Of a stretch of DNA of 64,000 nt, positions 40,195 through 61,600 are shown piece by piece. Below the pieces are notes generated by a model. It searched no databases and was not told where the DNA came from. It saw only the letters and a program-made list of their open reading frames with translations. The stretch comes from an uncultured Planctomycetia bacterium. Its GTDB lineage: Bacteria; Omnitrophota; Gorgyraeia; Gorgyraeales; Gorgyraeaceae. Numbering within the stretch: the stretch's first letter is position 1; the number at the start of each line of letters is the position of its first letter. The position numbers were made by a program, and so were the translations under genes. The DNA lies in assembly GCA_964415355.1 (NCBI GenBank), contig CAYPYS010000007.1, positions 11,208 to 75,207 on the forward strand. Direction: 5' to 3'.

Positions 40195-40201
40195 GATTGA
40201 T

Positions 40202-42676: not shown

Positions 42677-42686
42677 GGCGGGTGAT

Positions 42687-43853
42687 ATGGATATTCAAAA
42701 GCAGTTGGAGATCATAAGGCGTGGTGCAGTAGAGATAATCTCTGAGAAGGAGCTTGCCTCAAAGCTGGAAAGGCAAAAACCCCTTATTGTAAAGGCAGGA
42801 TTTGACCCGAGCGCGCCTGACATACACCTGGGCCACACCGTGCTTTTGCGCAAGCTTAGGCATCTTCAGGACCTCGGTCATAAGGTAGTTTTCCTTATAG
42901 GAGATTTTACAGGCATGATAGGAGATCCTACCGGACGCAGCGAGGTCAGGAAGAGATTGACGCAGAAAGAAGTCAAGGAGAACGCAAAGACCTATAAAAA
43001 GCAGGTTTTTAAAATATTGGACGAGAGAAAGACACAGGTGGTATTCAATAGCAAATGGCTCAGCTCAATGAAGCTGAGTGACTCTTTGGAATTGACCTCG
43101 CACAGCACTGTGTCGCAGCTGCTCGCGAGAGCGGATTTTAATGAAAGATATAAGTCAGGCAAGGACATAAGTCTTCTGGAATTCATGTACCCGCTTCTCC
43201 AGGCATATGATTCTGTGCATCTTAAAGCTGACGTCGAGTTGGGCGGCACTGACCAGAAATTCAATCTGCTTTTAGGCCGCGAGATCCAGAAGGATTACGG
43301 CCAGGAGCCTCAGGCTATTATCATGATGCCGCTTTTGGTCGGGCTTGACGGCACGCAGAAAATGAGCAAGTCTTTCGGGAACCATATAGGCATAGAAGAA
43401 GCTCCGGAGCAGGTATTTGGCAAGATCATGTCTCTCTCAGATGAACTTATGACGCAGTATTACGAGCTATTGACAGACGAGGATCTGGATGGAGTGCGAA
43501 AGCTGCATCCGATGAAGGCAAAGAAGAACCTAGCGCAGAAGATAGTAGGGCAGTATCACGGTGATAAGACAGCATCTCTGGCGCGCAGAGACTTCGAAAA
43601 CAAATTCCAAAAAAAAGACCCCTTTACAGAGCTGGAACCGCAGACAAAACCATACCATAAGACGCTGGCAGATTTTCTAGTAGCAGATAAGATATGTGTC
43701 AGTAAAAGCGAATACAGACGCTTAATGGAGCAGGGGGCAATAGAGGTAAACGGTAGCCGCATCAAAACACCGGATTTCGTATTAGAGCCCTCCAAAGAAT
43801 ATCGCATAAAAGTAGGCAAAAAACGCTTCCTAAAGGTCACCTTTCTCCGTTAA
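42687..43853 (+). CDS. tyrS: Tyrosyl-tRNA synthetase
   Basis: 'PDIHLGH' (HIGH), 'KMSKS', and a C-terminal S4-like domain. Start 42687; 42657 is repeat-derived. Confidence 0.95.
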   Translation: MDIQKQLEIIRRGAVEIISEKELASKLERQKPLIVKAGFDPSAPDIHLGHTVLLRKLRHLQDLGHKVVFLIGDFTGMIGDPTGRSEVRKRLTQKEVKENAKTYKKQVFKILDERKTQVVFNSKWLSSMKLSDSLELTSHSTVSQLLARADFNERYKSGKDISLLEFMYPLLQAYDSVHLKADVELGGTDQKFNLLLGREIQKDYGQEPQAIIMMPLLVGLDGTQKMSKSFGNHIGIEEAPEQVFGKIMSLSDELMTQYYELLTDEDLDGVRKLHPMKAKKNLAQKIVGQYHGDKTASLARRDFENKFQKKDPFTELEPQTKPYHKTLADFLVADKICVSKSEYRRLMEQGAIEVNGSRIKTPDFVLEPSKEYRIKVGKKRFLKVTFLR

Positions 43854-43895: not shown

Positions 43896-43924
43896 TTGAC
43901 AAGAAAGCGTTTTCGCGGTATAAT
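43896..43924 (+). promoter_or_regulatory. Perfect-consensus sigma70 promoter in front of giant ORF 1
   Basis: TTGACA (43896-43901), exactly 17 nt, TATAAT (43919-43924). Confidence 0.7.
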
Positions 43925-43980: not shown

Positions 43981-44064
43981 ATGTATCGCAGGCGCATCAA
44001 CAGGATCACATCCATCGTAACTCTTCTGACGTTTCTTTCCACCAGCACCCTTTACGCAGCACCA
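43981..44064 (+). other. Shared 28-aa N-terminal leader, copy in giant ORF 1
   Basis: MYRRRINRITSIVTLLTFLSTSTLYAAP versus ORF3 MTWKIIRKITSIVILITFLSTNVIYAAP: 17/28 identical with no gaps. Basic n-region, hydrophobic core, and a YA|AP cleavage-like end. Confidence 0.8.
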
Positions 44065-47000
44065 TCCAGCCGTTCATTCTTCAAAAATAAAAAAGTAGAT
44101 CACAAGAAACTAAGTGACCAGAACGAAGACTTTATAGAGAAAAAAGGCTCTGTCCTTGATATTAAAAATGGCGCAAAGCCCCAGGCGCGCAGGAAAGAGG
44201 CAAGGGCCCTCCTTTCTTCCCATCTAAAGGATTTATCGCAGATACATATACCTTCTGAACTGGGAAGGATAATAGAGGTGTATGAAGGGGAAAAGGATAA
44301 ACGACAAGGAACAAGGCCTTTGATCGTTCATATCCAGGACCTCCACACAAATCCAGAGGCAGAACTTAACCTTGCCAAGATCCTCGAAATACTTATAAAA
44401 GACTATAGCATGAATCTGGTCTGCTCAGAAGGCGCAGACGGAGAGGTGGATACTTCTTCTGTCTCAAGCTTTCCGGATTACTCTGTGAGAGAAAAAGTAG
44501 CCAGGCTCTTCATAGATTCAGGAGAATTGACAGGAGAGGAGTATTTATCGATAACAAAATATCCTGATCTAGCCATATGGGGCATAGAGGATAGAGATAT
44601 ATACTTTAAAAACATAATAGAGTTCAATAAGATTATAAAATTCTCTCCCCAAAGCCACGTATTTATATCCCAGGCCAAAAAGGCCCTGGAGCAACTTAAG
44701 CCCAAGATATGCTCAAGGGAACTAAAAGACCTGGACCAGAAAGAAGCCTCCTATGATAACCAGGAGATAGAGGTAGCCCAGTATCTTAATTACCTCGCTG
44801 ATTATGTTGAGGCACTCGGAATCAATACAAAAGACTATAGAAATGTGAATCTATTGGCTGAATCCATAGACCAGGAAAAGACTATAAATCAACAAAAGAT
44901 AATGGATGAGTCGCAAAGTCTTTTGTTGAACCTTCAGGTCTCTCTTTCTAATAAAAGGATAAAAAAAGAGCAGGATGAACTTATGGCGCGCGCAGAGCTT
45001 TTCAGGGACCAGAAGATCTCACCCTTTTCATTCTATAGCTACTTAAAAGCCTTGGCTCTCAGGCACCTGAAAGAAGGTCTTTCAAAATACCCTGATCTTG
45101 ATCGCTACATCACCTATCTCACGAATGTAAACTCTTTAGACCAGGTGAAACTCTTCAATGAACTAAAAGATCTCGCATACGATATAAAACAGGCCCTCGC
45201 AAGGACGCCTGAACAAAAAAGATTTGTAAAGGCCCTCAGGAACATAAACTTTTTAGAATCTTTCTTTAACCTCAAGGTCTCAAACGAAGAATTAGACTAT
45301 TACCTGGCCAATAGAGACTCCCACAAGGTAGGATTCTTTCAGGATTTTCTGAAACCCACCCTGAAAAAATACAGACTATCGAGTTTCATAGATTATAATA
45401 CAGACCTTATAGACTCAAAGCTTCCTATCCTCGAAGACTTCTACAAGACTGTCAAAGACCGCGACGTAGCAATGGTCAAAAACTCCCTCTCTGAGATCGA
45501 AAACCGCAATTCAAAAGTCTCTGCCCTGATCGCAGGCGGTTTTCATACAAAGGGCATAACAACTTTACTAAGAGACAAAAACTATTCCTATATAGTAGTA
45601 TCCCCATACTCATCCACTGACATAGACGAGGAGAATTATCATTTTCTATTATCAGGTAAACGCAAGCCGCTGACAGAGCTATTGAATAAGCTTGATGCGT
45701 CAGAAATCGTAGACGGGCTTTCCTCAAGCTTAAGGGTAACGGTGGGTTTTGATCTTGATATGCACGATGGCTTAAGAGAAAAGGTTGCCCCTGTGCTCGC
45801 AGAAGAATTAGGCGTATCAGTGGAAGAGGTAACCCCGGAAAATATTCTTGGGAGAATAGTTCCGGTTCTTCTATTGCACAGAGAGGCCTCGAGCTGGTTT
45901 AGTAATTTTGACAAGATTATCGGCGTAGAGATAAAGCGGACTGCCAAGGGACTTGTAATGAAGATATCCCCTAAAGGTAGAGGGACAAAAGCAAGATATA
46001 TTATGGCCACAAGAGATAGCGGGTTTACTCTTGCGACAGCACGTGACTTCAATGCTGCAGGCGCGACAGTAATAGCTGTTGCTCCCGAGAAGAGCCCTCT
46101 GGCAGATACAGAGGATGATTCTTCACTTACCTATGCCGGAGGAGAGCAAGCTAGAAACGTAACTACTTATAATGACCTATCAGCGCAGGGCATCAGGGAT
46201 TCACTGGCGACACTTTCTCGCGACGGCGCTATTTTAGTCCTGGCTGACGGCACAAAGTGGACTGTGAGTGAATGGGATAGCCAGAGCAAGACCGCAGCGC
46301 TTACTGGTCTAGGAGATGCAAAAGGAGAAACGCAATACATATCAGTGCTGGATGACGGCCTGGTTGTCATAAGTGCTACTCCTCTTATTCGCGACTATAC
46401 AGTCGTGGCCATTGCATCGGATGCTTCTGTTTCTGTCAAGATAAAGGCATTGGCAGAGGATATTTTTACGAGTCCTGACAGGGCGCTTGCGACAGCCGCG
46501 CTTCAATATGGCCTGACCCGCGGATTCCAGCCGCTTATCAATTACATATCAGCGCTTCTTGAGAGAGAAGGCGTAAAGGCCCATCCTGAGACAGAGGTCG
46601 TAATGCTGGATGATGTCTTTGAAGGAGAAGATATTTTAGCAAGACTCCTCATAGAAGAAGGCGATATAGTTGTTTACAATAGCGGAAACCTGTCCGAGCA
46701 GGACAAAAGGATTTATACCAATCGTGGCGCAGAGTTAATAGAGATGGACCTCTCGACACCCGTTGGGATGCACAAGTTGTCCGGGCGTCTCGAGAACGGT
46801 AGTATAGACGCGGACCGCGTTAAATTTATTCAGGTTTTGTCCGAGAGAAAACTAGGGACAGAAACTATGTCGCAGTCTGCAAGAGTCGCGCTTTTAGCAC
46901 TGGCCAGAGAGCATGATTTTCTTTTAGTAGAAGACGCCAGGTACAGGGATCCTGTTTTGTCAGAAAACGAAAGTTTAAAGGCCATCGATTACGAAGGCCT

Positions 47001-48084
47001 TGATAGCAGGGTCGTGCAGCTTCGCAGTCTTTCGCAGCTTTTTGGGAAAGACGTAGAGATAGGTTCTGGTTATGCCGTGCTTCCGGCCGCGCTCGCGGTA
47101 AAGTTTGAGGCGACTAAAGGCTCTGTAACGCTTCACCCGAATTCAATGGCGCAGATACTTGTATATAAGGAATTATTGAGGAGATACGGAGATAGAGACA
47201 TTGAATTTTCTGAACTTACTGAGGCAGAGAAAAATCCGGAATTACCGGCCTGGCTCTCGGATAAATTATCTGACTATGGCAGAGGCATCAAGCTTTCAGA
47301 GATAAGAAGGATCCTGAAACTCATGGCCGACCCTGATTTGATTTCATTGGCCGGAGGCATACCTGCCGCCGAACTGTTTCCTTACGAACAGACCTATGAA
47401 CTTATTGCAGAATTCGGCGAAGGAGACTGGAGAACGGCTCTGACTGCTTCTCACAGTCAGGGCATTGAGAGGCTCAGGGCATTGGCAGCAAAGACTGTTG
47501 GCGCCGGCGCAGAGAATGTGCTTATAACAGATGGCTCGCAAGAGGGCCTTGACCTTTTAGGCCGCTTTGTCAGGTCTATTTCGTCAGAGAGGGATGACAG
47601 GGCTAATGAGGTCATAACCCAGAAGCCGACATACCTTGGATTCATGAGCGCTGCGGATCCATATGGATGCGAGGTCCAACCGTATGATCTGAATAATCTA
47701 GAAGGCATTGAAGAACTTAGAAAAGATCTGAGGACGAGAGCTGATGCCGGAGATGCCCTTCCTTCTCTTATGTATATAATGCCTACCTTTGGCAATCCAA
47801 ACGGAGACGTAATGAGTTTAGAGGAAAGGGTAAGGCTTTTGGAGGTAGCAGACGAGTTTGACATAGCCATTGCCGAAGACAATCCATATGGAGCGCTTAG
47901 ATACGAGGGGGAAGCTATCCCTACCTTGCTTGAGTTATCAAGAGAATCAGGCAATGCCACTGTTTTATACCTTGGCACAGTGTCCAAGACATTTACCCCG
48001 GGCATGAGGATAGGCTGGACAGTAGGGCCTGTGGAAATAATACAGCGTTTAACAGCATACAAGGAAGAGACGGTAAAAAGGTAG
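43981..48084 (+). CDS. Giant fusion ORF 1 (1367 aa): signal-like leader, unknown (possibly TraB/Tiki/ChaN-like) N-region, unknown middle, degenerate plus canonical class I aminotransferase modules; ends at a frame break
   Basis: Uninterrupted 4.1-kb ORF. ATG 43981 follows SD aaaggggg and a consensus promoter. 'ISLAGGIPAAELFP', 'MPTFGNPNG', 'AEDNPYG' and 'GTVSKTFTPGMRIGW' are aminotransferase (Aro8/LysN-type) motifs. See the domain features below. Confidence 0.8.
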   Translation: MYRRRINRITSIVTLLTFLSTSTLYAAPSSRSFFKNKKVDHKKLSDQNEDFIEKKGSVLDIKNGAKPQARRKEARALLSSHLKDLSQIHIPSELGRIIEVYEGEKDKRQGTRPLIVHIQDLHTNPEAELNLAKILEILIKDYSMNLVCSEGADGEVDTSSVSSFPDYSVREKVARLFIDSGELTGEEYLSITKYPDLAIWGIEDRDIYFKNIIEFNKIIKFSPQSHVFISQAKKALEQLKPKICSRELKDLDQKEASYDNQEIEVAQYLNYLADYVEALGINTKDYRNVNLLAESIDQEKTINQQKIMDESQSLLLNLQVSLSNKRIKKEQDELMARAELFRDQKISPFSFYSYLKALALRHLKEGLSKYPDLDRYITYLTNVNSLDQVKLFNELKDLAYDIKQALARTPEQKRFVKALRNINFLESFFNLKVSNEELDYYLANRDSHKVGFFQDFLKPTLKKYRLSSFIDYNTDLIDSKLPILEDFYKTVKDRDVAMVKNSLSEIENRNSKVSALIAGGFHTKGITTLLRDKNYSYIVVSPYSSTDIDEENYHFLLSGKRKPLTELLNKLDASEIVDGLSSSLRVTVGFDLDMHDGLREKVAPVLAEELGVSVEEVTPENILGRIVPVLLLHREASSWFSNFDKIIGVEIKRTAKGLVMKISPKGRGTKARYIMATRDSGFTLATARDFNAAGATVIAVAPEKSPLADTEDDSSLTYAGGEQARNVTTYNDLSAQGIRDSLATLSRDGAILVLADGTKWTVSEWDSQSKTAALTGLGDAKGETQYISVLDDGLVVISATPLIRDYTVVAIASDASVSVKIKALAEDIFTSPDRALATAALQYGLTRGFQPLINYISALLEREGVKAHPETEVVMLDDVFEGEDILARLLIEEGDIVVYNSGNLSEQDKRIYTNRGAELIEMDLSTPVGMHKLSGRLENGSIDADRVKFIQVLSERKLGTETMSQSARVALLALAREHDFLLVEDARYRDPVLSENESLKAIDYEGLDSRVVQLRSLSQLFGKDVEIGSGYAVLPAALAVKFEATKGSVTLHPNSMAQILVYKELLRRYGDRDIEFSELTEAEKNPELPAWLSDKLSDYGRGIKLSEIRRILKLMADPDLISLAGGIPAAELFPYEQTYELIAEFGEGDWRTALTASHSQGIERLRALAAKTVGAGAENVLITDGSQEGLDLLGRFVRSISSERDDRANEVITQKPTYLGFMSAADPYGCEVQPYDLNNLEGIEELRKDLRTRADAGDALPSLMYIMPTFGNPNGDVMSLEERVRLLEVADEFDIAIAEDNPYGALRYEGEAIPTLLELSRESGNATVLYLGTVSKTFTPGMRIGWTVGPVEIIQRLTAYKEETVKR
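44300..45610 (+). other. Unknown N-region of ORF 1 with weak TraB/GumN/Tiki/ChaN-like end motifs
   Basis: 'LIVHIQDLHTNPEAE...LVCSEGADG' near the start and 'ALIAGGFHTKGITTLLRDKNYSYIVVSP' near the end resemble the two conserved blocks of that superfamily. The assignment is by eye only. Confidence 0.3.
46470..47190 (+). other. Degenerate aminotransferase large-domain copy (module 1)
   Basis: 'LQYGLTRGFQPLINYISALLEREGV', 'LVEDARY' and 'KGSVTLHPNSMAQILVYKELL' align by eye with class I aminotransferase blocks. The NPxG and SxSK motifs are not preserved. Confidence 0.5.
47290..48081 (+). other. Canonical class I (Aro8/LysN-type) aminotransferase module 2, truncated ~30 aa after the PLP lysine
   Basis: 'ISLAGGIPAAELFP', 'ITDGSQEGLDLL', 'KPTYLGF', 'MPTFGNPNG', 'AEDNPYG', and 'GTVSKTFTPGMRIGW' (Lys codon 47986-47988). 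Confidence 0.75.
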
Positions 48085-48089
48085 GCTTT

Positions 48090-51000
48090 GTGCCTGGCTG
48101 GCCGTTTTTAGGAGAGTCAAATCAGATCAGGCTGTCTTTCCCGACAAACTCCCCTGATATTATAGACGGCGCAGTAAAGGCAGTTAGTATTGCCATAAAG
48201 GACAGCATGGGCAAAGGCACCCTGGCTATGGAAGGCCAGGTCCCTGCTGCTGATCTCGAGATCCTTACTAACTTTGGGACAGCCGGATGGCGAGGCACTG
48301 ATTTTACAGACGGCAATGTCAGGCGCATGGCACAGGCTGTTGCCGAAGTAGGGATAGCAGAAATCAATAAGCCTGTTTCTGAGATTCGCATGGCTGTCGG
48401 ATATGATGCAAGGCCTGGTGCCAGGGAAGATGCTATCCTCCTAACAGAGGTTCTGGTAGCGAACGGCATACACGTTGATTTCATAGATCAGGTATTGCCT
48501 TCACCCGTAATGATAGAGGTAACGCACGGAAGCGTTCCTGATTCAGAAAGATATGATCTAACGGTTTATTTTACCGCAAGTCATAATCCCGTGTATCAAT
48601 CGCTTGACCCGCTTAAGCAGTATAAAGGTATAAAGATATTAATAGAGGGTGTTCCTGCCGGCGATGAGTTTACCTCAAAGATATCAGCTCGAGCAAATGA
48701 CCTGGCCAAGAATGCCACATATAAATATATTCCCTTTGATCAGATTCCGGATATGCTTATTACGCATGACGTGGATCTTATTGCAAAAGATAGAGCTCGA
48801 CTTGAAAAAGCCTTTGGGCTTTCAGATTATGGAGTAAAAATAGCCAGATTATTTACTATATTTCCTAATTTGACGATTCGCATAAGTCCGATGAACGGTG
48901 CGACCGTGGAACAGATCGCTATATTCGATAAAATAGGCCTACCTGTAGTTTTTTATGATACCGCGCCTTTGCATGAAGTTATAGCCAGCGGAGAATACGA
49001 GCTTCAGACTGCAGACGGGATAATGAAAGGACCTGATCCGACAAAACCCTATAATCTTAATGCAGAGATGTTAAAAGATACAGAAGGGCAGGATGTCATA
49101 AAGTTTCTTATTGACGGAGACGGGGACCGTCTTGTTGTCGAGGATATAAACGGCAGGCCGATCACGCCTAATGAAATCGGTCTTATCATCGCCCATTATC
49201 TCCTGGAGCACAAGGGCGAGGAAGGTTACGTCGTCCGCACTTTGCCTACTACGAGAATGCTGGATCGTCTCGCAAGAAAATTTGGAATGCCTCTCGCGCA
49301 GACAGGAGTCGGCTCAAAGAACTTCGGGCCTTATACTGTTCAAGGGACCGAGCAGCGTCTTATCGTTGCCGTTGAAGAGAGCGGACATGTTTTCTTTAGA
49401 TTAGGCGATGAGATATTTGTCGACCATGCAGTAGCCGAGGCCTTGATCCTGCTCGATATCATGGCAACGACAGGCAAGACATTGACCCAGTATCTTGAGG
49501 AGGTCGAAAGAGAGCTGGGGACTATTCATTATAAACGGGATGCCGTGGCCAAGGAATTAGCGGTCCCTGGCCTGAAGCGCGGGCTATTGTGGCTGCGCAA
49601 TAATGATCCTGAGCTTTTGGCGCGCGCAATCGCAGATGAACTGGGTATGGATTTGAAAGGTTTTGATCCATTGGATAAGACCGGTGTCCTTGTAACCTTT
49701 GAAGATGATCAATGGATTTTACCTCGCGCATCAGGCACGACAAATACTATAAGGATTTACGCTGAGACGAGTTCTCAGGAAGATCTGGAAAAATGGATAA
49801 GCGGAGCAGAAAGGGTTTTGGTAAAACTTGTCAATGATATGGCTGCTCAAGGCATACTGGACAGGTCTCCGGATATCTGGTCGCATGTTATAGAAAGAGG
49901 AAAATCTCTCGCAGGCGATATCGTGAAGTGGCTCGGCTGGGTAGATGCGCCTGTGAGATTTTTGAAACGGATGTCAAAGATTAGAAGCTTGAAGTCAGAG
50001 CTTGCAGAGGAAGGCATAACCAATGTCGTTGTCCTTGGCACCGGAGGATCAGGCCTGGGTATAGGGACTTACGCCGAGGTCTTTGAAAAAGATAATTTAA
50101 TAGTCATTGATTTAGAAGATCCTCAGGGCATACAGAATGCAATGGCATGGGTCGATGAAAGGGGTTGGGATAAGACGATCTTTACTGTGCAGAGCAAATC
50201 CTGGGGCACTACTGAAACAAGAAACGCAGAGGCAGTTTTCAGGCAGGTCCTGGCTGATCGGATAGGGGCTGAAAATGTAGCCCGGCATTTTATAGCAGTG
50301 ACTGACGCAGGCAGGATAAAGGGAGAAGAGAGGGCTAATTTTAGGGAAATATTTGCGACTAATTATCCCGGAGATGCCAGGAAAGGTCGCGATATAGGTG
50401 GCAGATATTCTTCAGATTCCTTCTTTAGTCTTGTTCCGGCTGAATTAGCAGGCATACCCCATGAAGAGCTTTTAGTGGATGCCCGCGATGAATATAACCA
50501 GTTCAGGCGAGAGCTTGGAGAATATATAGGTGTCCGCATAGGCGCAGAGCTTAGCAGGTTCCACGGCCTTGGCAGAAATAAAATTACCTTTATATTAGAT
50601 AAAGGCCTTGAAGCATTTGGACCGTGGGTGCAGCAGCTTATAAATGAATCCGTAGGCAAGAACGAAGATACCGTAGTCTGTGTTACCGGAGAAGAATTTT
50701 CAGGAGATAGTTCTGTGTATGGGGATGACAGGGTCTTTGTGAAGATCGCTATAGGTAAAGGTCCTGCTATGCAAGTCACAGAACAAGGCATTGTTCTCAT
50801 AGTCGAAAGTAAAAATGACATAAATAGATTGCAATATAGGTTCAAGGTAGCTACTGCTATCCTGGCAAATCTAATGGGTGTGCACCCGTTTAATCAGCCG
50901 TTTGTCGAGAGCAGTAAATGGATTACAAAGGGTCTCCTGGATTCGGAGTTGACTCCTGAGCAGCTCACAGCAGAGCTTGTCGTAGCCGCATCTGAAAATT

Positions 51001-51899
51001 TAAAGAAATACGAAGGAGCAGAGGTCGCTATGCATTACACAGGAAGGACAGAAGACGCTATTGACATTGACCTGGAAACTGCTTCTGTGGAAGATGTATT
51101 GGCAGCATTTCTGGCAACAATAGAGTCAGGGGATTATATCTATCTTTCTCCTTATACATTTGATTCTCCTGCGCTGCAAAAGGCCTTTTCTGAGATAAGG
51201 AGTATTATAAGAGATAATCATCCTGCTCATCCAGCCACGCTTTTTGGCATTGGCTCAAGGAGCCAGCATTCCGACAATCAGCTTAATAACGCCACTGACC
51301 AGGCAACGGTATTGGCGTTTACCTTTGATTCGGCCGAAGGTGTTGATAGGGCAGTGCCCGGTAAAAATTATACACTGGCTCAGGAAAACATGGCGCATGC
51401 ATTGGGAACGGTAGGCGCGCTGGAGGATAAGGGAAGAAGGGTCATGAGGATCCACCTTTCCGATGAGTACAGGCAGGACATAACAAAATTAACAGCACTC
51501 TTTGAGAAAGCCGTTGCAAGGATGCGCGGAATGGAATTAGTCAGGTCATCGAGTAAGCAGCAGGCCGCGTCAATGGAACAGATCCTGGTCGTTCCCGCAA
51601 ACAAGGTAATAGCCGATAAAGAGGGTTTTGAAAAATGGATGTCATCCGGCCGCCAGGAAAATAACGCTGTGGTGATAGTAGCTTATGATGTCGACGAATA
51701 CAATCGGGTCAAGGAATTCGGGGACATTGCCTATATAAGGGTAGTCGGAAAGGATATTAGCGAGGAATACGACCTTAAGCTGCTCCAGATGTTTGCATTG
51801 TTCGGAAAAGATAATATGTTTGGCGGATTTATACTTGGGACACCGGCTGACCTGGATGATTTCAGATCAGTTTCCGAAGAGATATCCTCTGGCGTCTAA
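48090..51899 (+). CDS. Giant fusion ORF 2 (1269 aa): aminotransferase C-terminal remnant, alpha-D-phosphohexomutase, glucose-6-phosphate isomerase, shared C-terminal domain
   Basis: GTG start 5 nt after the ORF1 stop, in the -1 frame. 'FVPGWPFLGESNQIRLSF' (aminotransferase end); 'FGTAGWRG', 'TASHNP', 'DGDGDR', 'EESGH', 'RASGTTNTIRIYAE' (PGM/PMM); 'GTGGSGLG', 'SKSWGTTET', 'GGRYSS' (PGI). Confidence 0.8.
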   Translation: MPGWPFLGESNQIRLSFPTNSPDIIDGAVKAVSIAIKDSMGKGTLAMEGQVPAADLEILTNFGTAGWRGTDFTDGNVRRMAQAVAEVGIAEINKPVSEIRMAVGYDARPGAREDAILLTEVLVANGIHVDFIDQVLPSPVMIEVTHGSVPDSERYDLTVYFTASHNPVYQSLDPLKQYKGIKILIEGVPAGDEFTSKISARANDLAKNATYKYIPFDQIPDMLITHDVDLIAKDRARLEKAFGLSDYGVKIARLFTIFPNLTIRISPMNGATVEQIAIFDKIGLPVVFYDTAPLHEVIASGEYELQTADGIMKGPDPTKPYNLNAEMLKDTEGQDVIKFLIDGDGDRLVVEDINGRPITPNEIGLIIAHYLLEHKGEEGYVVRTLPTTRMLDRLARKFGMPLAQTGVGSKNFGPYTVQGTEQRLIVAVEESGHVFFRLGDEIFVDHAVAEALILLDIMATTGKTLTQYLEEVERELGTIHYKRDAVAKELAVPGLKRGLLWLRNNDPELLARAIADELGMDLKGFDPLDKTGVLVTFEDDQWILPRASGTTNTIRIYAETSSQEDLEKWISGAERVLVKLVNDMAAQGILDRSPDIWSHVIERGKSLAGDIVKWLGWVDAPVRFLKRMSKIRSLKSELAEEGITNVVVLGTGGSGLGIGTYAEVFEKDNLIVIDLEDPQGIQNAMAWVDERGWDKTIFTVQSKSWGTTETRNAEAVFRQVLADRIGAENVARHFIAVTDAGRIKGEERANFREIFATNYPGDARKGRDIGGRYSSDSFFSLVPAELAGIPHEELLVDARDEYNQFRRELGEYIGVRIGAELSRFHGLGRNKITFILDKGLEAFGPWVQQLINESVGKNEDTVVCVTGEEFSGDSSVYGDDRVFVKIAIGKGPAMQVTEQGIVLIVESKNDINRLQYRFKVATAILANLMGVHPFNQPFVESSKWITKGLLDSELTPEQLTAELVVAASENLKKYEGAEVAMHYTGRTEDAIDIDLETASVEDVLAAFLATIESGDYIYLSPYTFDSPALQKAFSEIRSIIRDNHPAHPATLFGIGSRSQHSDNQLNNATDQATVLAFTFDSAEGVDRAVPGKNYTLAQENMAHALGTVGALEDKGRRVMRIHLSDEYRQDITKLTALFEKAVARMRGMELVRSSSKQQAASMEQILVVPANKVIADKEGFEKWMSSGRQENNAVVIVAYDVDEYNRVKEFGDIAYIRVVGKDISEEYDLKLLQMFALFGKDNMFGGFILGTPADLDDFRSVSEEISSGV
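48264..49830 (+). other. alpha-D-phosphohexomutase (PGM/PMM/GlmM-family) module
   Basis: Catalytic-Ser loop 'TASHNP' (48573-48590), metal loop 'DGDGDR' (49113-49130), sugar loop 'EESGH', phosphate loop 'RASGTTNTIRIY'. Confidence 0.8.
49900..51540 (+). other. Glucose-6-phosphate isomerase (SIS-fold PGI) module
   Basis: 'VVVLGTGGSGLG', 'SKSWGTTET' (50193-50219), 'IGGRYSSDS', 'GIGSRSQHSDNQL'. Confidence 0.7.
51576..51896 (+). other. Shared C-terminal domain (~107 aa), copy in giant ORF 2
   Basis: EQILVVPANKVIADKEGFEKW...AVVIVAYDVDEYNRVKEFGDIAYIRVVGKDISEE...NMFGGFILG...DLDDFRSVSEEISSGV. About half the positions are identical to the ORF3 C-terminus. Confidence 0.8.
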
Positions 51900-51952: not shown

Positions 51953-51989
51953 TAACTTCACGCTTTAACGTTGTTGAAGTGTGAAGTTA
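51953..51989 (+). repeat. Palindromic repeat copy 36 (diverged T1, fwd)
   Basis: taacttcacgctttaacgttgttgaagtgtgaagtta; 17 nt after copy 35. Confidence 0.8.
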
Positions 51990-52038
51990 TTTTTGGTGTT
52001 GTTGGCAAAGAGATTTAAAAAGAGCAAAATGATTTTAT

Positions 52039-52545: not shown

Positions 52546-52629
52546 ATGACCTGGAAAATTATAAGAAAAATTACTTCTATTGTAATACTCATAACTTTTC
52601 TATCTACCAATGTCATATACGCGGCTCCG
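52546..52629 (+). other. Shared 28-aa N-terminal leader, copy in giant ORF 3
   Basis: MTWKIIRKITSIVILITFLSTNVIYAAP. The nucleotide sequences of the two leaders differ at many synonymous sites, so the peptide is conserved rather than recently copied. Confidence 0.8.
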
Positions 52630-55600
52630 GGGCCCCGCAAGACACTAAGGGTGCCTCTGGGGTTTGCGAGAGAAAAGCTTTTAGAGCAGGAGCAAACAGG
52701 GCTTCCCACAAAGGAAATGCTTCTTATGATGGCCCAGGCAGTAGCCATGAGGATGGATGACGAATCCATACTCATGGATCTAGGGACTACTTTTTTCAAC
52801 ACAGCCTTTCGCAGAAATCTCGGCTCTCCTATCGAGATCCGCAGGAATAAAAATACAGGTACAGTCCATATCCGTTACAATGACAGATATATATCCATAA
52901 CAAGAAGCGGAAACATATCCGTGTCAAGCAGAATAAACTTTGATAAAGCCGAGCTCGTGATTGCCAGCATCAAGCCGCTTGTCGCATCCTCTTCTGATCC
53001 GACTGATAAAAAAGACAGGACAATAGGGTCTCTTCTCGGACTAATGGAGACATTTGCAGATCTCGGGCTCAAGCCAGGAGAGAAGATAACCATAAATGAC
53101 ATAATCCCTGAAAGAAAAAAGCAGGACGGTACATTGTATTCTCGTACGACAGTCTCAAGAGAATTTAAGGATGCAGTGGCGCTTGACCTTTTGAGGCTCA
53201 CAGGCAACAAGATAAAAAATAGCAATGAATATGAAGTCCTGAAGTCTTTTACGAGAGAACAGCTTAGTAGATTGCCGGGGCATATAAGGAAAAAGTTAAA
53301 CAGGGGCAGGATCAGATCTGATGAGATAGAAGAGCTCAGGCGCATATTCATAGCTGAGACATTAATGGGGCAAGGGACATTGCTGAAGGTATTCCTGGCA
53401 GGCCTTGCAGGTTTTCAGGAGGCGCTTGCAGACATACCTTATGATCTTTCAGGCGCAAATACTGAGACGGTCCAGAGTTTATTCACGGCTGTTGAAAACA
53501 TAGTTTTCCTGGCAAGGGATTTTGATAAAAAAGATCCTGCCTATGCCGAGGCTTATATCTATGAAAGCTTAGGGTTTGTTGATATTGATGGGAAAAGAAG
53601 ACTTGCTCTTGTCATCACGCCTTTTGAGGACAGGAGAAAGACCGGGTCCCTGGATGTCCTGGTATTTGATTCGCTTCTATCCGCGAATTATACGAGCCAC
53701 GCAATAAAAGCGACAGAAATAGAAATGGTGTCTACTATTGTCGGACGCCTGGATGAAAAGGATATTATCTCGCTTTCTCTTAAGTTCAGGGCAGAGTATC
53801 TGGATAACCCTGATGGCCCTGGCACGAGCGACACAAGGCGATCTGCCAAGGATTTTTTCCTGTATTTTGCCTCAAAGCGTAACGCAACCCAGGAAATATT
53901 GGATTTGGACGAAGAACTGATAGATGGTCTGGAGGGAAGGGACCTGGAAATAAAAGAACGCATGGCGCGCCTGAAAGAGGGCGTGTCGGATAAAGATCTT
54001 CTGGACGAATGGTTTATAGAAATTATGCAGGGAAAAGATACTCTTGTTCAGTACCTGTTATACACAGGGGACGCGGCTACATTCTGGTATGATTTACTGC
54101 TGGAGCTTGATTATACGCGCGCAATAAATGAGATGTTTTTATCAAGGCCTGACGCAATGACAACTTATGCCAGAAATGCATACGAACAGGCAGTCGTGGC
54201 CTCATGGATTTATATTCACCGCGCTGATTTTGGATCGCCTTTAGGAGAGAGGGCAGCCGAGGACAGAATAGAGGATTTTCAGCTGGCCCTGACATGGGAC
54301 ACGCTTGGCATACCAGGCCAGAAGGCGCTTGGCATGACAAAGGCAGAGTTTCCTGTGTGCTTGAATTGTGTTGGAAGGCCCTGTCAGCATGGGCCGCTGG
54401 GAAGCGTTGCTGCCCAGACGCGCACAAGGTCGGGTTTCGCCTCAGGCATAAGGTCTTTGATAGAAGACAATAATGTCTCTGCCAGCGTTCAGTTAGAGGG
54501 CGTATTTATATCCGAAGGAGTTTCATACTTAACCCATTTATATAATTATGCTGAACTATTGCTTATAGACCAGGCAGACGTCACCAGGTGGATGAATATG
54601 ACAGCGAGGGAACTGGACAGCGAAATAAGGTTGTTGACAGATGATGCAGACGCAATAGATCAAGAGGCAAAAAACATCGCAGAGCCGCATTGCCCGTTAG
54701 AGGTTCCTATCGCGGATATGTTCAGGCTTATGCGGCAGGATAGATTTGAAGAGGCGCTTGAGATCTTGAATAACAGCAGTTTTCTTGCAGGTATCTTCGG
54801 GCTCGTATGTCCCCAGGAACACCTGTGTCAGGCCGCGTGCGTCCAGGGCAGGCTGAGCGACAGGCCTTTGCCCATAGATATAGGAAAATTAGAATATCTC
54901 ATAGAGCTTACTTATATGAGGATAAACGGAGAATTGCCTATGCCTGAGGTCGCACCATTTACAGGAAAGTATGTCGCGATTATAGGTTCTGGCCCGGCAG
55001 GACTTCAGGCAGCATATGACCTGGCAAGAGAGGGTCACAAAGTGGTTTTATTCGAGCACCTGCATAAGGTCGGAGGTGTTTTAGTATATGGTATACCTAC
55101 ATTCAGGCTTCCTCCCGAGCTCCTCGAAGAAAAGGTCAGGATACTTAAGGAGATGGGCGTAAACTTTGTCACGAATGCTATTATAGGAGAAGACGGTGCG
55201 TATACCATAGAGGAGATGAGAAGATCATTTGACGCAGTAATAGTGGGCGTTGGCGCAGGCCAGTCAAACAAGATGGAGATAAGAGGCAAGGTGGTCCTTC
55301 TCGACGAAAAAACAGGAAGGGCAAGATTAGAGGTGCCTGAATACGCAAAGAGAGTGCCGATACCGGGCAGGGCCTTGAATGGCATTTATTCAGCGTATCA
55401 TTTTCTTTCATGGACATATCTGATGAATGCAATAAAGCCGGGTTATGATACGCCCATACCGCTCTCAAAAAATATACTCCAAGCATTTACGGAATCCAGG
55501 GCTACAGGAGAGGAAAAAGAAGTTACTGTGGTCGTAGAGGGCATAGGAAACGTGGCGCTGGACAGCGGCAGGACAGCTCTCAGATGGATAAATGTCCTGA

Positions 55601-58600
55601 ACAGGATATATGGCACAAATGTCAGGCCAAAGATCATATTCCTCTACAGGCGTCCGAGGGAAGAACTGGACCTCAAGGCGCGCGCAGAGGAATTAAAACA
55701 TCTCAGGGAAGAAGGCGTTGACACAATAGACATAGACGTATATGAGCTTCACCAGACCGTTGAATATCTCGGAAATACAAAGGGACATATAGAAGGAATA
55801 AGGGCCATAAGGTATGACAGAAAAGGCGCTAAGGAAGGCGTGCTGGTCGACATCCCCGTTGACATGGTTGTAGAAGCCCTGGGAGCAAAGCCGGCGACCG
55901 AGATATTAGGACCTTCCATACCTTTAAATAGATACGGGTATATCGAGATAGATAATCACAGGACAATGCAGGTAAGAGACATGGACGGCTCTGATGGCCT
56001 GGCGCCTGTATATGCTGTCGGAGACTGCGCAGAGGTGGACGCTATAGATGAAAGGATTATGGCGACCGCTGTCCTTGCTGCAACGCATGGAAAAAGGGCA
56101 TCCGAGGCACTCATAGAAAGACTGGATAATGAGACTGGCATGGTTCAGAGATATATAGATATCGATAAGGTATTTTTTAAAGCTACTCCATACAGGATGC
56201 ATGAGATATTGGAAAGGCGCAGGATAGGCAAAAGAGAGCTTGTATCCAGGCCGCTACGCGGAGATACGGGCAATGTTTTTAGCGAGCAGAGGATCGTGGA
56301 ATTTACTATTTATGCGCCTCATGTAGCCCGCAGGATCAGACCGGGCCAGTTTGTAACGCTGATGGCAGATGAATACAGCGAGAAAATACCTATAACATAT
56401 GTCGGTCTTGGAAAGATAAAAGGCAGTATACGCCTTGCCATCCTTGACGCAGGCGAATCAACAGTAAAAATAAATAATATGAAAAAGGGTGATTTGTTTT
56501 ACGCAGTCACCGGACCTGCAGGAGAACCTTCGATCTTTACAGGGCTGGCAGGCGAGGTAGACCTGGTGGGGTTGGGCAGTGGCATAGCCGCGATTGTCGG
56601 CATCGCCGAGCACAGGGCAGACCTGGACAGGAAATATAAAGAGTTGATGGCCAGGCTGGCAGGCAATTCCCGCGCAGATGTAGTCCTGTCGCTGATAGAA
56701 GAGATTTGGTCAGAATTGAGTCTTGCAAAGGATGATCTTTTGCACTATATAGTCGATGCGATAAGAGACAGGGATTATAATGAAGCAAAGAATCTGTTGA
56801 CAGCACTTGCCTACTCTATTGAACAGGATTTTCCGGCGAGCGAGCTTATAGCAGATGCAGAAGCACTGGTTGATACGATAACCATGCTCGAGGATTCTGT
56901 AGAAGACGAGGATGAATTGAATCTGCTTGTAAAACAGGAGGTCTATCAGGCGATAGACGATATATGGGAAGAGTTTGAGATATTAAAGAGAGAGAAACTA
57001 TTAAGGGAAATCAGTGATTTTGTATCTTCCGGAAATTACAAAAATGCATCTAATGCCTTGAATGCCGTTATCGGCGCAGGCTTTGAGACAAAGGTATTTC
57101 TGGCTGTCGGGAATAAGGATCTTTTGATGTATAAGACCGAGCTGGAAGAGGCTGTTGGCAGGGAGAACATATTCATAGCGCTTGAGGATGCCGAGGGCTT
57201 TGATCCGCATGCCGAAGGATATGCCAGCCTGATAGCGCATGAGAACAGGTTTTTTACAGGTTATGGCACTATTGCTTTTGGGGATTATTTAGGCAGGACG
57301 CATGATCCTATTAGCGGATTGTTGGTAGCAGGACCTGCGTTCGCAATGAATCTTTTTGTGCCATTGGTCAGAGAAGCAAACAGGCCTGATATCCTGAGTA
57401 CGAGAGACGTGTGGATGAGTACTAACCCGCCCATGTACTGTGCCTACGGCGGTTGTTTGATGTGTCTGGTGGCTACAGAACAGGCGATTCCGTGGCGCGG
57501 GTGTTTAGGTCCTGAGGCAGAGGCAGATATGCTTATCGGCGATTCTATTGTCAAGGGGCTTGAAATGAGCAAGCCTCAAGACATAATGCCGGGCGTTATA
57601 TTCAGCACGTCACCTTCTGTTGACAGGGAGCAAGCGATATCTGATATAGTGCAGGCGCTTGATGAGATTCTTTATATGCCTACTGTAGATGGTAAATTAT
57701 TTGTTGCCATATCTGATGCAAAGGGTTCGTTTATCGCTGAGTTAAGAAATGGTATTTTAGAGGAGAGATTATCTGACGAGGATATTGATGCAGTGCTCGA
57801 GAATATTGATTGGGAAAGACTAGGTGTTTTTAAGCCAGGCCATAAGATAAGGTTTGCAGGTAGGATATCCGATGTCTCAGGATTAGAGCTTGATAGGGTC
57901 ATGGAATTGCTCGGACTGACAATGCAGGGTGGAAGCGGTGCAGAAGATTCTGATTCCGGGATGACGCTCGATGATTTATTCAGTAGGAGCTTGGATCTCT
58001 CGATACTTGGCATAGAGGTCATCGGAGAATTCCGCGAGGTCTCTATATCGCCTTCCGGTTTTTCACGGCTCCGGGCGTTCCTTGAGGAGATCGGCGATAG
58101 ACAGAAGTTGGAAGAAATTTTGGGACTCGAAGGAAGTGAGTTTATTTTTGTTATGAATGGCGCGAATGAGCTTGTCGCGATTGTGATCCGCAACGAGACC
58201 AGGCAGAAAGAGCTTCTATGGATAGAGGGAGAGGCATCGTCCGAACTTTTCAGCTATCTGACTCTGAGAGCCTCTCTGCGTGGCAGTTCTATATCCGCGG
58301 ACCTGACAGTGGAGGAGATAAAACCCGGCGCAATACTCGGACCCGGCGCGACCACTACTCCCGCAAGCTCTGCCCTGGCAAAGACAGGGACGTGGACCAC
58401 GAAATACGCAGAGCATGATCTTGATGCGTGCGTGCAGTGTGGCCTGTGCGCACTGGTATGTCCCGAAGGCGCGATAGCGTTTGATATGGAGCCGGCGCTG
58501 AATACAGGCAGGCTGGTCCTTCCGACAAATCCTGATTATTGCAAGGGCTGCGATGCCTGCGTGGTACATTGTCCTTTAAAAGGATACGCGCTTAAGATGA

Positions 58601-61600
58601 TAGAAAAGACAGACCTTCGCCAGGTAGCAGTATCTCTGGATACGAATCCTGAGGGAAGAGGCGTTGTTATCGAAGGCGCTCCGGCATTACAGTTTGAAGG
58701 GCTGTTTAAGGAAGGCATTGATAGATTCAAAAAGGCATTAGGGCTCGATGTAGTTGAGATAATCAGCGAGAGTGAATCTTTTGTGCAGGTGAGGTATGAG
58801 AGAGGTGACATAGCATATCTTTTTACATTCGATAAGAAAAATACAAGATTGATCTTGAAACCATTGAGGACATTTGCCGTCGTTGGCCTTGAGAGTAAAA
58901 ATATTGATCTGGCAGATGCATTGCGCAGCAGGGGATTTGCGGTTACCGGCTTGATTTCTACTAAAGACAGAGGTTTTAGAGATAAATTAATGGAGGCCGA
59001 GAGACAGGGTATCAGTGTTTATGCGATAGAAGCAGGTTTGCTAAACCCTGGTATTAGCGGCAGTCTTCAGGCATTGCTTAATGACATCGAACGCCTGCGT
59101 CTTGCTAGATTTGTCGCGGTTGACACAGAGACGATCAGGGAGATAATCGGCCTGGACGAATACACGAAACTCGTCGAGGAGATAAACGAATATACACATA
59201 ATTCTATAATAAACTCTGTGGATTTGTTGCCGACAGGCAACACAGACTTTGATGAGGTCATGGCGAGTTTTGCTCCCGAATGGCAGGACCAGGTTCGCGA
59301 CCTCGCGCCCGGACACGGCCTATGCCCCGGCTGCGGTCAGCCGACAGACACGCACCTTGTATTAAAGGTAGCGGATGAACATGGAATGGCGCCGGTGGGT
59401 GTCATTACGACAGGCTGCCAGGAAGTCTCGACCACTAACTGGCCTTTTAATTCATGGCGCATACCAATGGTCCACGGAAACTATACAGCATCAGCCGCAA
59501 TCGTCAGCGGTATCTTCCGTGTCTATCAGTGGTTCAAAAAGATGGGCGTAAGTGTTTACGGGGATAAAGAAATCTTGCCTATAGTTATTATGGGAGACGG
59601 TGGTTTTGCAATAGGGCTAAATGTAATATCAGGCGGCCTGGAAAAGGGATTACCGATTTTATATCTGGTCGAGAATAATTCAGGCACTCAGAATACGGGC
59701 GCGCAGGCATCCACGCTTTCGATGCCGGGCATAACTGCGCAAGGCGCCTCACAGGTAAAGACCACGCAAGGCGTGTATATACCTGATATAGCAAAGGCGC
59801 ACGGACCTAACGTCTATTACGCAAGGGTTTCCAATGCATATCCCGAAGATTTTGAGAGAAAATTAAACCGCGCAATGGAATGGATAAAACAGGGAAGAGG
59901 ACCTGCGGTCATAGAGTCTTTTAACACCGCATGCCCTACCGGCTGGAAGTCTGACGCGACACAGAGCCAGGAAGAAACCTCTCTTTCGGTCCAGACAGGC
60001 GTTGGCATGACTGTGCTTTTTGAGCAGGTCGGGAATCGCATAAGGATAACGCAACCACCTCTTCTAAGAGACGGAAAGATATATATAAATACAGAATATA
60101 TGCGAAGCCTGGAATATGAGTTAGGTCATTTAAGGAATGCCGGCGGCAAGAGGCTGTTATCTGACAGACAGGTGGCTTCCATGATTTCGCATATCAAGAA
60201 GAGAAGGGAATTTATTTTGGCAAGAGAGCTTGAAAGAAGACAGCCTAAAAAACCAGGCCTGCCGTTTGTCCAGCTCGACTTAGATGCGTTAAAGAACCTG
60301 CTTGTCCTTCATTCGTTCAACCTGCCTCTGGAGTCAGACCTATTGATAGACAGGTTGGATGTCCTGGGCCTTTCCGGAGACGAGATAGAGGACATTGCGC
60401 AGCATCGGTCAGAGGGTAATGAATTCAGAAACAGGCAGGACGTGCTTCGGTTTATAACCGATGTGCGTTACAGAGAGGTTACGGAAAGAATACTTGATAT
60501 ATATGACACAGTCGAGATCAGGGATTTTATTATGGAATGGACAGAGACAAAGGAAGAGGGAAATATCGATTTCGAGGAGACCGTTGTATTTGAGAAGATA
60601 GAAGATATTTTGAAAGTCCCGGGCATAGGGCCAGTGACGTATGATGCCGTAAGTCCGTATCTTACATTAGAACCGAGAAGACCTCATATATTCGAATACT
60701 TATCGAGACAGGGAAGATTCAGGAGGCTTCTTGGCTGGGATGACGAGGCGTTTCTGGGAGACATGCAGCGAGATGTGGACGCGCATATACTTAGGCTGAT
60801 GGCGCAGCATGAAAACGACAGGGCTTTCTTTGAGAACTTTGATAATTTACTGGCCAGAGGAGAAAAAATCCCGGTAGAGCAGTTCAGGTACAAGTCAGCA
60901 AGGGAGGCGCATGACAAGGCCCTTGTTCCTGCTAGAGTCATACCTGCGGATCCGGAAAGAAACATCAGGATTTTAGAACGCAGGGCAAGGCTAGGGGATA
61001 GGGTTTTTGAAGAACGCTGGCATGGAAGAGGCGGCCAGGGTGCTATTACTGCGGCAACGCTTCTGGCAACATATGCGGGCGAGGTAGAAGGTATAGGCAT
61101 TCAGGCGTTTCCGCACTTTGGGGTCGAACGCGCAGGTGCGCCTGTAAAGGCATATGTCAGAATGGGTAATAATATAAAACAGCATGACCCTGTTACGGAA
61201 CCTGATGTAGTAGTGGTTATAGATGAGTCTTTGCTGGAACTTCCCGAAGTGTTGGAAGGTATAAAGCCGGGCGGTTTTCTATTGGTGAATAGCAAAAAGC
61301 CGGCTGAAAAAATACTGGAAGAATTAAGGGCTAAAGGCAATGCGCTTAAGGATATTACTCTTTTTAGCGTGGACGCTACCGGTATAAGCATAAAACACAT
61401 GGGAAGAAATCTCCCTAATATTCCTATGCTGGCTGCGAGGATTATGGTTTCGAGGCTTACTGATGCAGACTTGGGTCCGGCAGAAGGCGCCACGGATTAC
61501 ATAAGGCAGCTTTTAGTAGAGATGTTTGGAGAAAAGATAGCCGGATTAAATTACGACGCGATGCAGGAATCAGTACGTTCTATAGATGCTGTATCAGGCG

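Follow-up and report, generated by a model that had tools for sequence, protein, structure and literature searches.

The 64,000-nucleotide window analyzed here (contig CAYPYS010000007.1, positions 11,208 to 75,207, of GenBank assembly GCA_964415355.1, an uncultured bacterium placed by GTDB in the Omnitrophota) carries two adjacent plus-strand open reading frames (ORFs) that are the two parts of one gene for a multi-enzyme protein. ORF1 (43966/43981–48084) has 1,372 codons counted from a TTG, and ORF2 (48090–51899) has 1,269 codons and is read in frame -1 with respect to ORF1. The modules are arranged in the order of leader, a head of ~560 residues, two aminotransferase modules (AT1 and AT2), a phosphohexomutase, a glucose-6-phosphate isomerase (PGI) and a tail of ~115 residues. 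Domain searches recovered all of the modules listed in a first-pass annotation made from the sequence, although its treatment of ORF1 and ORF2 as two units did not stand, and the conserved leader and C-terminal tail were absent from it.

ORF1 terminates at a TAG codon (48082–48084) in the middle of AT2, and ORF2 opens with the last ~45 residues of the domain broken off in ORF1. The JGI metagenome contig Ga0171656_1029763 (L001) matched the window at every position across 3,981 nucleotides (nt) but for one extra T, reading GTAAATAAGG where the window reads GTAAAAAGG; the run of five A at 48075–48079 in the window corresponds to AAATAA in this sister contig. The L001 reading frame is intact and yields a 2,639-residue protein, and the protein called from it (P0001) runs uninterrupted through the junction as AYKEETVNKVGFVPGWPFLGE. 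Upstream, a promoter-like TTGACA-17 nt-TATAAT sequence (12/12 positions; plus strand, 43896..43924) lies 57 nt 5′ of the ATG at 43981, and a terminator-like hairpin of 17 pairs followed by a T-run (plus strand, 51953..51999) lies 54 nt past the stop codon of ORF2, both being consensus matches only. No comparable signal was found ahead of ORF2. The start codon is the ATG at 43981 rather than the TTG at 43966, as homologues begin at the same Met (‘MYRRR’). Because L001 is identical but for the T and reads through, because the promoter-like sequence is upstream and the hairpin downstream, and because ORF1 opens with the leader and ORF2 closes with the tail, a framing also seen in relatives, ORF1 and ORF2 are one gene for a 2,639-residue protein, split here by a 1-nt deletion. 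The missing T may have arisen through faulty sequencing or may mark a variant strain; that it marks a slippage site is improbable. It falls at most three codons from the scar of an 86-residue deletion in AT2, and comparison with L001 and AT1–AT2 orthologues placed both lesions within 48064..48092 (plus strand).

The leader (residues 1–30; plus strand, 43981..44070) is signal-anchor-like and consists of a positively charged N-end (MYRRRINR), ~20 hydrophobic residues and a conserved YAAP. The motif K..S......F...N..YAAP was common to homologues, and most family members had one N-terminal hydrophobic segment, while no twin-arginine consensus was found across the family. The leader is predicted to be an uncleaved anchor, since the Pro after YAAP argues against signal-peptidase cleavage and the N-end is positive. 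At the other end, the tail (plus strand, 51516..51899, stop codon included) is an alpha/beta domain of ~115 residues ending in SSGV at the extreme C-terminus, and it was found again at the extreme C-terminus of P0049, P0050, P0054, P0056, P0062, P0077, P0078, P0099 and P0103, family tails ending in A/S-x-G-V/I. Leader and tail together also frame P0050, P0054, P0056 and P0099. Both recur in a 3,703-residue protein encoded by the next gene but one downstream, the leader with 57% identity over 30 residues and the tail with 44.7% identity over 150 residues. Tail, head and mid region were assigned to no family by Pfam at E ≤ 10 (noise aside) or by NCBIfam at E ≤ 1.

The head (residues ~35–590, numbered from the Met of the fused protein; plus strand, 44083..45750) was modeled with AlphaFold from an alignment of 34 family members (pLDDT 79.6). 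Its predicted core is an alpha/beta fold with a parallel beta-sheet, as in solved members of the TIKI/TraB/EreA/ChaN superfamily, interrupted by a helical insertion of ~300 residues. At the fold level, the modeled head is thus a TIKI/TraB/EreA/ChaN hydrolase-like domain, and the weak TraB/Tiki/ChaN motifs noted in the first pass pointed in the right direction. Residues I118, Q119, D120, H122, E150, E187, R494, G519, G520 and H522 were invariant in 34/34 members, and the same columns were invariant in 14 more, mostly remoter members. The Asp-x-His, Glu and His among them (D120, H122, E150, H522) have the order and spacing of the 2His/2Glu catalytic set of the superfamily, with Asp as the first acid. 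In RRSP this set is E3900, H3902, E3930 and H4030, and in Bcr135 the 28-residue spacing between H85 and E113 equals that of the head (PMC6254334). From this invariant set the head is probably an active hydrolase. It shares its alpha/beta core with the TIKI/TraB/erythromycin-esterase/ChaN/RRSP superfamily, but differs in the ~300-residue helical insertion, in the Asp as first acid, and in escaping detection by the family models, as the Pfam TraB, ChaN and Erythro_esteras models gave no match to the head. Its coding region had a composition of its own, with a GC content of 41.6% and a GC skew down to -0.025 between 44001 and 46000; in the rest of the window, where nearly all genes are on the plus strand, the skew was +0.11 to +0.27.

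Downstream of the head (plus strand, 45751..46485), an earlier call of an unknown segment of ~280 residues can be divided in two. The head extends to about residue 700 (46080), as shown by tblastn and blastp, whose matches to L005, L007, L013 and L017 extend as far as residues 699–777, and is followed by a non-conserved linker (residues ~700–835) that is rich in Ala, Asp, Ser and Thr.

The alpha-D-phosphohexomutase (~535 residues; ORF2 residues ~53–585; plus strand, 48246..49844) retains all four catalytic loops (TASHNP, DGDGDR, EESGH and RASGTT), as the first-pass annotation had read them. The phosphoserine loop ‘YFTASHNPV’ lies in ORF2 within a PGM_PMM_I match (E = 2e-16; 60.4 bits, cut-off 22.5), and ‘IDGDGDRL’, ‘AVEESGH’ and PRASGTTNTIRIY align with their counterparts in 1tuo, placing the module in the superfamily. 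By Pfam, domains I and III were clear, domain IV scored 22.3 against a cut-off of 23.1, and domain II was undetected; domain II could be recognized in the closest relatives, P0003 and P0004, and residues 11–521 were covered when the module was aligned in full length with 546-residue phosphoglucomutases (PGMs). Equivalog models remained below their cut-offs, with 112.5 against 439 for Arch_GlmM, 63.7 against 778 for pgm TIGR01132, 57.5 against 448 for glmM and 51.6 against 600 for PgmG. As no equivalog (GlmM, Pgm or PMM/PGM) came near its cut-off, the mutase carries no sugar-specific name here. It was 42–47% identical to modules of the large multi-enzyme proteins P0002, P0003 and P0004 and 44% identical to that of P0102. 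P0002 is from the Omnitrophota and combines its mutase with transaldolase and PPDK, while P0003 combines it with a lactonase-like domain. The match to the mutase of L005/L018 was marginal (24.9% identity, E = 7e-4, seen in L018).

The PGI (ORF2 residues ~600–1142; plus strand, 49887..51515) is of the type found in transaldolase–PGI fusions and contains SKSWGTTE, GGRYS, ESVGK, NQPFVESSK and QHSDNQL. It matched PF00342 with 32.8 bits (cut-off 22) and positions 405–948 of NF007080 with E = 2e-86, which bears out the earlier identification from ‘SKSWGTTET’ and ‘GGRYSS’. The motifs SKS..TTE, GGRYS, ES.GK, NQP.VE..K and HS..Q were all kept in the alignment to P0006 and 3ifs, placing the module among the PGIs. 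The Arg of GGRYS, the Glu of ES.GK, the His of HS..Q and the Lys of Q..VE..K belong to the established catalytic and phosphate-binding residues of PGIs. Identity to P0006, a bifunctional transaldolase/PGI, was 31% across the whole PGI half, the late-placed His motif included, and identity to the PGI module of P0099 was 61% over the full length. The module was not itself assigned to the bifunctional enzymes, because only the PGI half of NF007080 was matched (290.7 bits, cut-off 712) and no TAL_FSA domain was found. Unlike in those enzymes, there is no transaldolase half here, and the upstream partner is a phosphohexomutase. Since mutase and PGI both keep their catalytic residues, the first-pass proposal of consecutive steps from glucose-1-phosphate through glucose-6-phosphate to fructose-6-phosphate is reasonable. 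No second PGM, PGI or AT pair was found elsewhere in the window by tblastn, and the 64 kb contain no separate pgi, pgm or glmM gene.

AT1 (residues ~836–1085; plus strand, 46486..47235) corresponds to a large domain alone, equivalent to residues ~65–308 of the LysN type, and matched the Thermococcus multiple-substrate aminotransferase 1wst over chain residues 73–308 (E = 1.4e-13). Its ‘SLSQLF’ pairs with ‘TFSKIL’ of 1wst, so that a Gln occupies the position of the Schiff-base Lys. The Asn that binds pyridoxal phosphate (PLP) is also lost, the N-terminal arm and small domain are missing, and the cross-subunit Tyr (‘ALQYG’) is retained. AT1 is thus catalytically dead by its residues, in line with the degenerate aminotransferase recognized in the first pass.

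AT2 (residues ~1103–1415 of the fused protein) consists of 260 N-terminal residues of LysN/KAT-II type in ORF1 (plus strand, 47287..48081) and of ~45 C-terminal residues (‘GFVPGWPFLG...IRLSF’) in the ORF2 frame (plus strand, 48090..48224), the latter including the alpha-carboxylate Arg (LysN R386). Pfam Aminotran_1_2 was detected at ORF1 residues 1153–1364 (E = 2e-18), and the best solved relative was LysN 2egy (E = 1e-40). In the alignment to 2egy, the equivalents of S20, R23, G39-G40, N174, D202, Y205, K238, R245 and R386 were kept, and the catalytic and ligand set of LysN/KAT-II enzymes (Schiff-base Lys, Asp, Tyr, Asn and Arg, and alpha-carboxylate Arg) was present. The numbering of LysN Tyr70 was confirmed in the same alignment, and an Ala stands at its equivalent in the window. 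The alignment also skips from chain residue 264 to 345, so that ~86 residues (LysN 265–344) are gone and AT2 falls short of the 390–420 residues or so of a complete enzyme with large and small domains. This stretch (‘...MTRGGANSLTQ...ERNGKN’ in L005) is present in L005, L013 and L020 and absent only from the window and L001. Because the loss cuts into the large domain and leaves little of the small one, AT2 in the window lineage is truncated and probably inactive. The earlier reading of a canonical Aro8/LysN-type module was therefore correct as to type but not as to completeness. The active-site alignments and domain searches that it proposed as a check found catalytic residues kept in mutase, PGI and AT2 but the Schiff-base Lys lost from AT1.

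Three further AT1–AT2 lineages were recovered by head-based locus scans and a pattern scan; a word-index search with the mid region and AT1–AT2 returned only three MocR-type regulators (28–35% identity over <30% of the query). L005/L018 (at least 2,721 residues) contains head, AT1, AT2, phosphomannomutase (PMM)/PGM and a type I phosphomannose isomerase (PMI). L013/L019, a complete ORF of 4,045 residues, has leader, head, glutamate dehydrogenase (GDH), AT1, AT2, PGM/PMM and PMI. In both, the PMI is at the C-end and there is no tail, and stretches of 300–800 residues without family match lie between AT2 and the mutase. L020/L021 is a free-standing AT1–AT2 protein of ~760 residues adjoining pheS and dnaE. 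This tandem is identical in the two metagenome contigs (L020 953–3235; L021 9857–12139), begins with a hydrophobic, lipoprotein-like segment (‘LSYGVLTCC’), and has a housekeeping neighborhood that also includes an NTP transferase.

Across the four lineages (window, L005/L018, L013/L019 and L020/L021; 40–68% identity), AT1 had Q, P, R or H at the Schiff-base Lys position and retained Tyr70 in 4/4, while AT2 kept Lys, Asp, Asn and Arg and had Tyr70 replaced by A, R, K or P in 4/4. AT2 was complete in all three lineages other than the window. In fold-type-I aminotransferases, LysN Tyr70 reaches into the PLP site of the partner subunit. Because AT1 and AT2 lose complementary residues, the pattern suggests that a single chain forms a pseudo-heterodimer in which only one active site works. 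The LysN/KAT-II and archaeal multiple-substrate aminotransferases (2egy, 1wst, 1x0m and 3aov) share the PLP and substrate residues of AT2, AT1 being a diverged large domain, but are homodimers, whereas here two copies are fused in tandem and AT2 is without Tyr70. Serine palmitoyltransferase LCB1/LCB2 is a fold-type-I PLP heterodimer in which the Lys-less partner lends residues to a single active site. The likeness to AT1–AT2 would be one of analogy only, as LCB1 and LCB2 are separate polypeptides of another subfamily with other chemistry. The identity of the closest solved relatives, the retained equivalents of Arg23 and Ser20, and the GDH module in L013/L019 suggest that the ancestral role of AT1–AT2 was glutamate-linked amino-acid transamination. 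MocR/GabR regulators, which gave the best NCBIfam E-values, were rejected as an identity, as ORF1 has neither PF00392 nor an N-terminal GntR-type helix-turn-helix, and PdxR scored 138 against 320 over the aminotransferase part only.

The N-terminal 560–780 residues of ORF1 were 25–67% identical to the N-termini of 46 proteins in a word-index search, and all of these relatives that bear a phylum-level name are Omnitrophota. Their cargo comprised class II FBA with FBPase, PGK, GAPDH with PGK, 6-phosphogluconolactonase/NagB-like domains, UGPase with PGM, parts of PPDK/PEP synthase, GNAT, phosphoribosyltransferase, glycogen-debranching enzyme and Lon, among others. An exhaustive HMMER search with the head matched 7,861 representatives of 50% identity clusters at E ≤ 1e-3, 2,249 of them at E ≤ 1e-30. 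Among the members listed, the head was almost always placed at residues ~40–580, in proteins of 500–7,700 residues. In 14 further large members the cargo included PGM (five), PGK, PFK, Tal and ARMT1-like domains (two each), a cupin GPI and a PGI. Three metagenome-assembled genomes (MAGs), scanned with a few peptide patterns, each had two or more head genes, and head loci were labeled Omnitrophota or, in automated third-party annotation records, ‘uncultured Planctomycetia’. P0099 (2,766 residues) consists of head, ~1,330 residues without Pfam match at 1e-5, PGI and tail, and the unmatched part implies that further unrecognized cargo modules exist in the family. Beyond their heads, P0075, P0076 and P0092 have 5–15 predicted hydrophobic helices, so part of the family would be polytopic membrane protein rather than soluble cargo.

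Within this family, the head and AT pair of the window protein were closest to L005 and L013 (54–68% identity; AT pair 55–68%), whose cargo is PMM with PMI. The window protein is thus a mosaic, in which the AT pair, the mutase and the PGI have their nearest relatives in different head proteins, and the simplest reading of this would be cassette exchange among paralogous head genes. The first-pass annotation had presented the enzyme combination as unusual and in need of a special explanation, a view that gives way before a large family with a common head and shuffled enzymes of central metabolism.

Downstream of the gene, an Rrf2 regulator gene (52080–52520) precedes the gene for the 3,703-residue protein (plus strand, 52546..63657), a fusion of a GltD-like NAD(P)H oxidoreductase and a 2-oxoacid:ferredoxin oxidoreductase that has the same leader and tail and no head. 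Its single ORF contains Fer4_20 and FAD/NAD(P)H domains of GltD/SudA type and all parts of a 2-oxoacid:ferredoxin oxidoreductase (TPP_enzyme_C, POR gamma, POR_N, PFOR_II and 4Fe-4S), and its ~700 N-terminal residues are unannotated. The MAG UBA10183 (DNHS01000043.1; L010, 7014–21797) is syntenic with the window at 37565–43853 (DAHP synthase to TyrS), with the gene order DAHP synthase, prephenate dehydrogenase, acyltransferase, LytB, S1, TyrS, a 986-residue PFK-containing ORF and the oxidoreductase orthologue. This orthologue (at least 3,932 residues) has a head and a ThiS-like domain ahead of the GltD-like and oxidoreductase parts, implying that the head was gained or lost between orthologues. 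The AT-pair and oxidoreductase genes are on different contigs in UBA10183. Thus, the suggestion that the aminotransferase feeds the neighboring 2-oxoacid oxidoreductase finds some support in the GDH module of L013/L019 and in the LysN/KAT-II relatives, but the adjacency itself is not conserved in that MAG. The window also holds a complete stand-alone class I/II aminotransferase (36441–37517) and a stand-alone class V aminotransferase (11836–13011); both belong to other subfamilies, so that conventional aminotransferase genes do exist here, as had been pointed out, but AT1–AT2 is not simply an extra copy. The former is part of an aromatic amino-acid cluster (35254–39485) with chorismate mutase/prephenate dehydratase, DAHP synthase and prephenate dehydrogenase, and the isoprenoid genes dxr, gcpE and lytB are scattered in the window. 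These conventional genes indicate that single-enzyme genes coexist with multi-enzyme ones.

Our preferred reading, to which we assign a probability of about 0.6, is that ORF1 and ORF2 are transcribed as a unit and were ancestrally a single gene, belonging to an Omnitrophota family whose proteins consist of a leader, a TIKI-like head, variable cargo and often a tail. The mutase and PGI would act consecutively, from hexose-1-phosphate to hexose-6-phosphate to fructose-6-phosphate, as housekeeping enzymes on one membrane-anchored chain. AT1–AT2 would have descended from a free-standing tandem gene, ancestrally for glutamate-linked amino-acid transamination, with an active site made of the AT2 PLP pocket and the cross-subunit Tyr of AT1; AT2 would have been crippled by deletion in this lineage and the gene additionally split in this assembly. 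The combination of enzymes would reflect cassette shuffling among paralogous head proteins rather than a dedicated pathway, and the head would be a hydrolase (peptidase or esterase) that processes or sorts head-cargo proteins. Several points weigh against this reading. The frameshift is present in the window itself, and the product in this genome may be two proteins or none. The catalytic residues of the head were mapped by order and spacing, not by residue-level superposition, and the pseudo-dimer proposal is drawn wholly from residue patterns. The order of AT1–AT2, mutase and hexose-6-phosphate isomerase recurs in three lineages with non-orthologous mutases and isomerases, implying a possible functional coupling that shuffling does not explain. 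Finally, the topology of the leader is predicted as N-in/C-out, so that the enzymes would be extracytoplasmic, which is at odds with housekeeping.

The last point leads to the idea of an extracytoplasmic or prey-directed protein, in which the leader would be a Sec signal-anchor and head and enzymes would be displayed on the outside of the membrane or delivered to a host or prey; sugar phosphates would be processed there, as proposed for the Archaeovorins, and the head would resemble membrane-tethered TIKI/TraB proteases. The positive N-end and hydrophobic helix of ~20 residues in the leader would fit. Most of the characterized relatives among TIKI, TraB and ChaN proteins are tethered to membranes or located outside the cytoplasm, and RRSP and HopBA1 are translocated effectors. 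West-Roberts et al. (2023; 10.1101/2023.11.21.568195) predicted extracellular PGI, PGM, FBA, FBPase and TIM domains, with stated doubt, and a 2026 preprint (10.64898/2026.06.07.730766) gives multi-enzyme giants a signal peptide and transmembrane topology. However, sugar phosphates are not expected extracellularly, and the family cargo (PGK, GAPDH, PFK, PPDK) needs ATP, NAD, CoA, ferredoxin and Fe-S/TPP. The adjoining Fe-S/TPP oxidoreductase, bearing the same leader and tail, likewise requires cytoplasmic cofactors, in conflict with an N-in/C-out topology, and the family lacks a twin-arginine consensus. We therefore consider this location somewhat unlikely, while giving it real weight. A gene in decay, that is, a recent pseudogene whose string of modules is functionless here, would account for the TAG stop created by the 1-nt deletion and for an 86-residue deletion confined to this lineage, with both lesions at one spot. 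It is nevertheless unlikely, considering the intact frame of the sister contig L001, the lack of other stops across 7.9 kb, the conserved mutase and PGI motifs, head invariant residues and tail, and the intact promoter and terminator matches.

Still less probable, in our judgment, is a dedicated coupled pathway, in which aminotransferase, mutase and isomerase would share substrates such as amino-sugar phosphates or would couple the transfer of amino groups with the flux of hexose phosphates. The repeated order of AT1–AT2, mutase and isomerase, with PMM and PMI in L005/L018 and L013/L019 and with PGM and PGI here, speaks for it, as does the fact that archaeal GlmM gave the best NCBIfam E-value for part of the mutase. 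Yet that model reached 112 bits against 439 over half of the profile only, the protein has no acetyltransferase or uridylyltransferase module, and an amino-sugar (GlmS/GlmM) role, also raised in the first pass, gained no positive support. AT2 keeps the alpha-carboxylate Arg and the Arg23 and Ser20 equivalents of amino-acid/2-oxoglutarate aminotransferases, the AT pair is joined to GDH in one lineage, the free-standing tandem (L020/L021) has no sugar enzymes nearby, and the truncation seen here affects AT2 but spares PGM and PGI. A programmed -1 frameshift is very improbable. In such a case the run of five A before AGG-TAG would be a recoding site, and a slip on GTA-AAA-A would give ‘...TVKKVGF...’; ORF2 does lie in the -1 frame, after a tRNA-Lys slip the product would differ from the L001 reading only by one N-to-K change, and directly downstream come a rare AGG codon and a stop. 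But the site departs from the canonical X_XXY_YYZ heptamer, no structure was seen downstream (none was searched for), L001 needs no frameshift, and the orthologues are ordinarily coding at the site.

Multi-enzyme chains are already known from this phylum. West-Roberts et al. (2023; 10.1101/2023.11.21.568195) described giant Omnitrophota proteins, the ‘Archaeovorins’, that contain TIM, PGI, FBPase, PGM/PMM, FBA and PPDK domains, were unsure where the enzyme domains are localized, and noted N-terminal regions without identifiable domains. In the 2026 preprint (10.64898/2026.06.07.730766), ‘multi-enzyme metabolic clusters’ are reported in proteins of at least 10 kaa (thousand amino acids) with PGM/PMM frequent, membrane association is argued from topology predictions, and PGI is surveyed as ‘absent’ in most genomes. 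The Archaeovorins and multi-enzyme giants resemble the window protein in phylum, in the many unrelated enzymes on one chain and in an N-terminal signal-like segment, but they are at least 10,000 to 30,000 residues long, with many transmembrane helices and with HEAT, glycosyltransferase and SecA-like domains. With 2,639 residues, one hydrophobic segment and no Archaeovorin-type domains, the window protein is not an Archaeovorin. Term searches in West-Roberts et al. (2023), the 2026 preprint and Seymour et al. (2023) found the TIKI-like head, leader motif, tail, size class of 1–8 kaa and tandem aminotransferase described in none of them, and among the papers listed by a broader search that paired Omnitrophota with TraB, Tiki, ChaN or erythromycin esterase none was relevant. 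The arrangement of head, leader, tail and tandem aminotransferase is therefore new within a known phenomenon, and not an isolated oddity.

It is conceivable, and we put it forward tentatively, that the head-cargo-tail proteins represent an undescribed organization of central metabolism in the Omnitrophota, in which each genome would encode housekeeping enzymes by the dozen as modules of a small number of polyproteins. Every such polyprotein would have a conserved anchor or sorting leader, an active TIKI-type hydrolase and often a dedicated C-terminal domain. Head and tail might then direct sorting, assembly or proteolytic maturation or, much as in multi-effector autoprocessing toxins, export towards a host. 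If glycolytic and other housekeeping enzymes of the Omnitrophota exist mainly as head-anchored modules, pathway calls made from stand-alone gene models would mislead, the ‘absent’ PGI being an example. The tandem aminotransferase, which looks as though the two subunits of a fold-type-I dimer had been joined in one chain, would bear on pseudoenzyme evolution and enzyme design. Head, leader and tail would offer three testable handles on how large proteins are made and placed in an uncultured and possibly predatory phylum.

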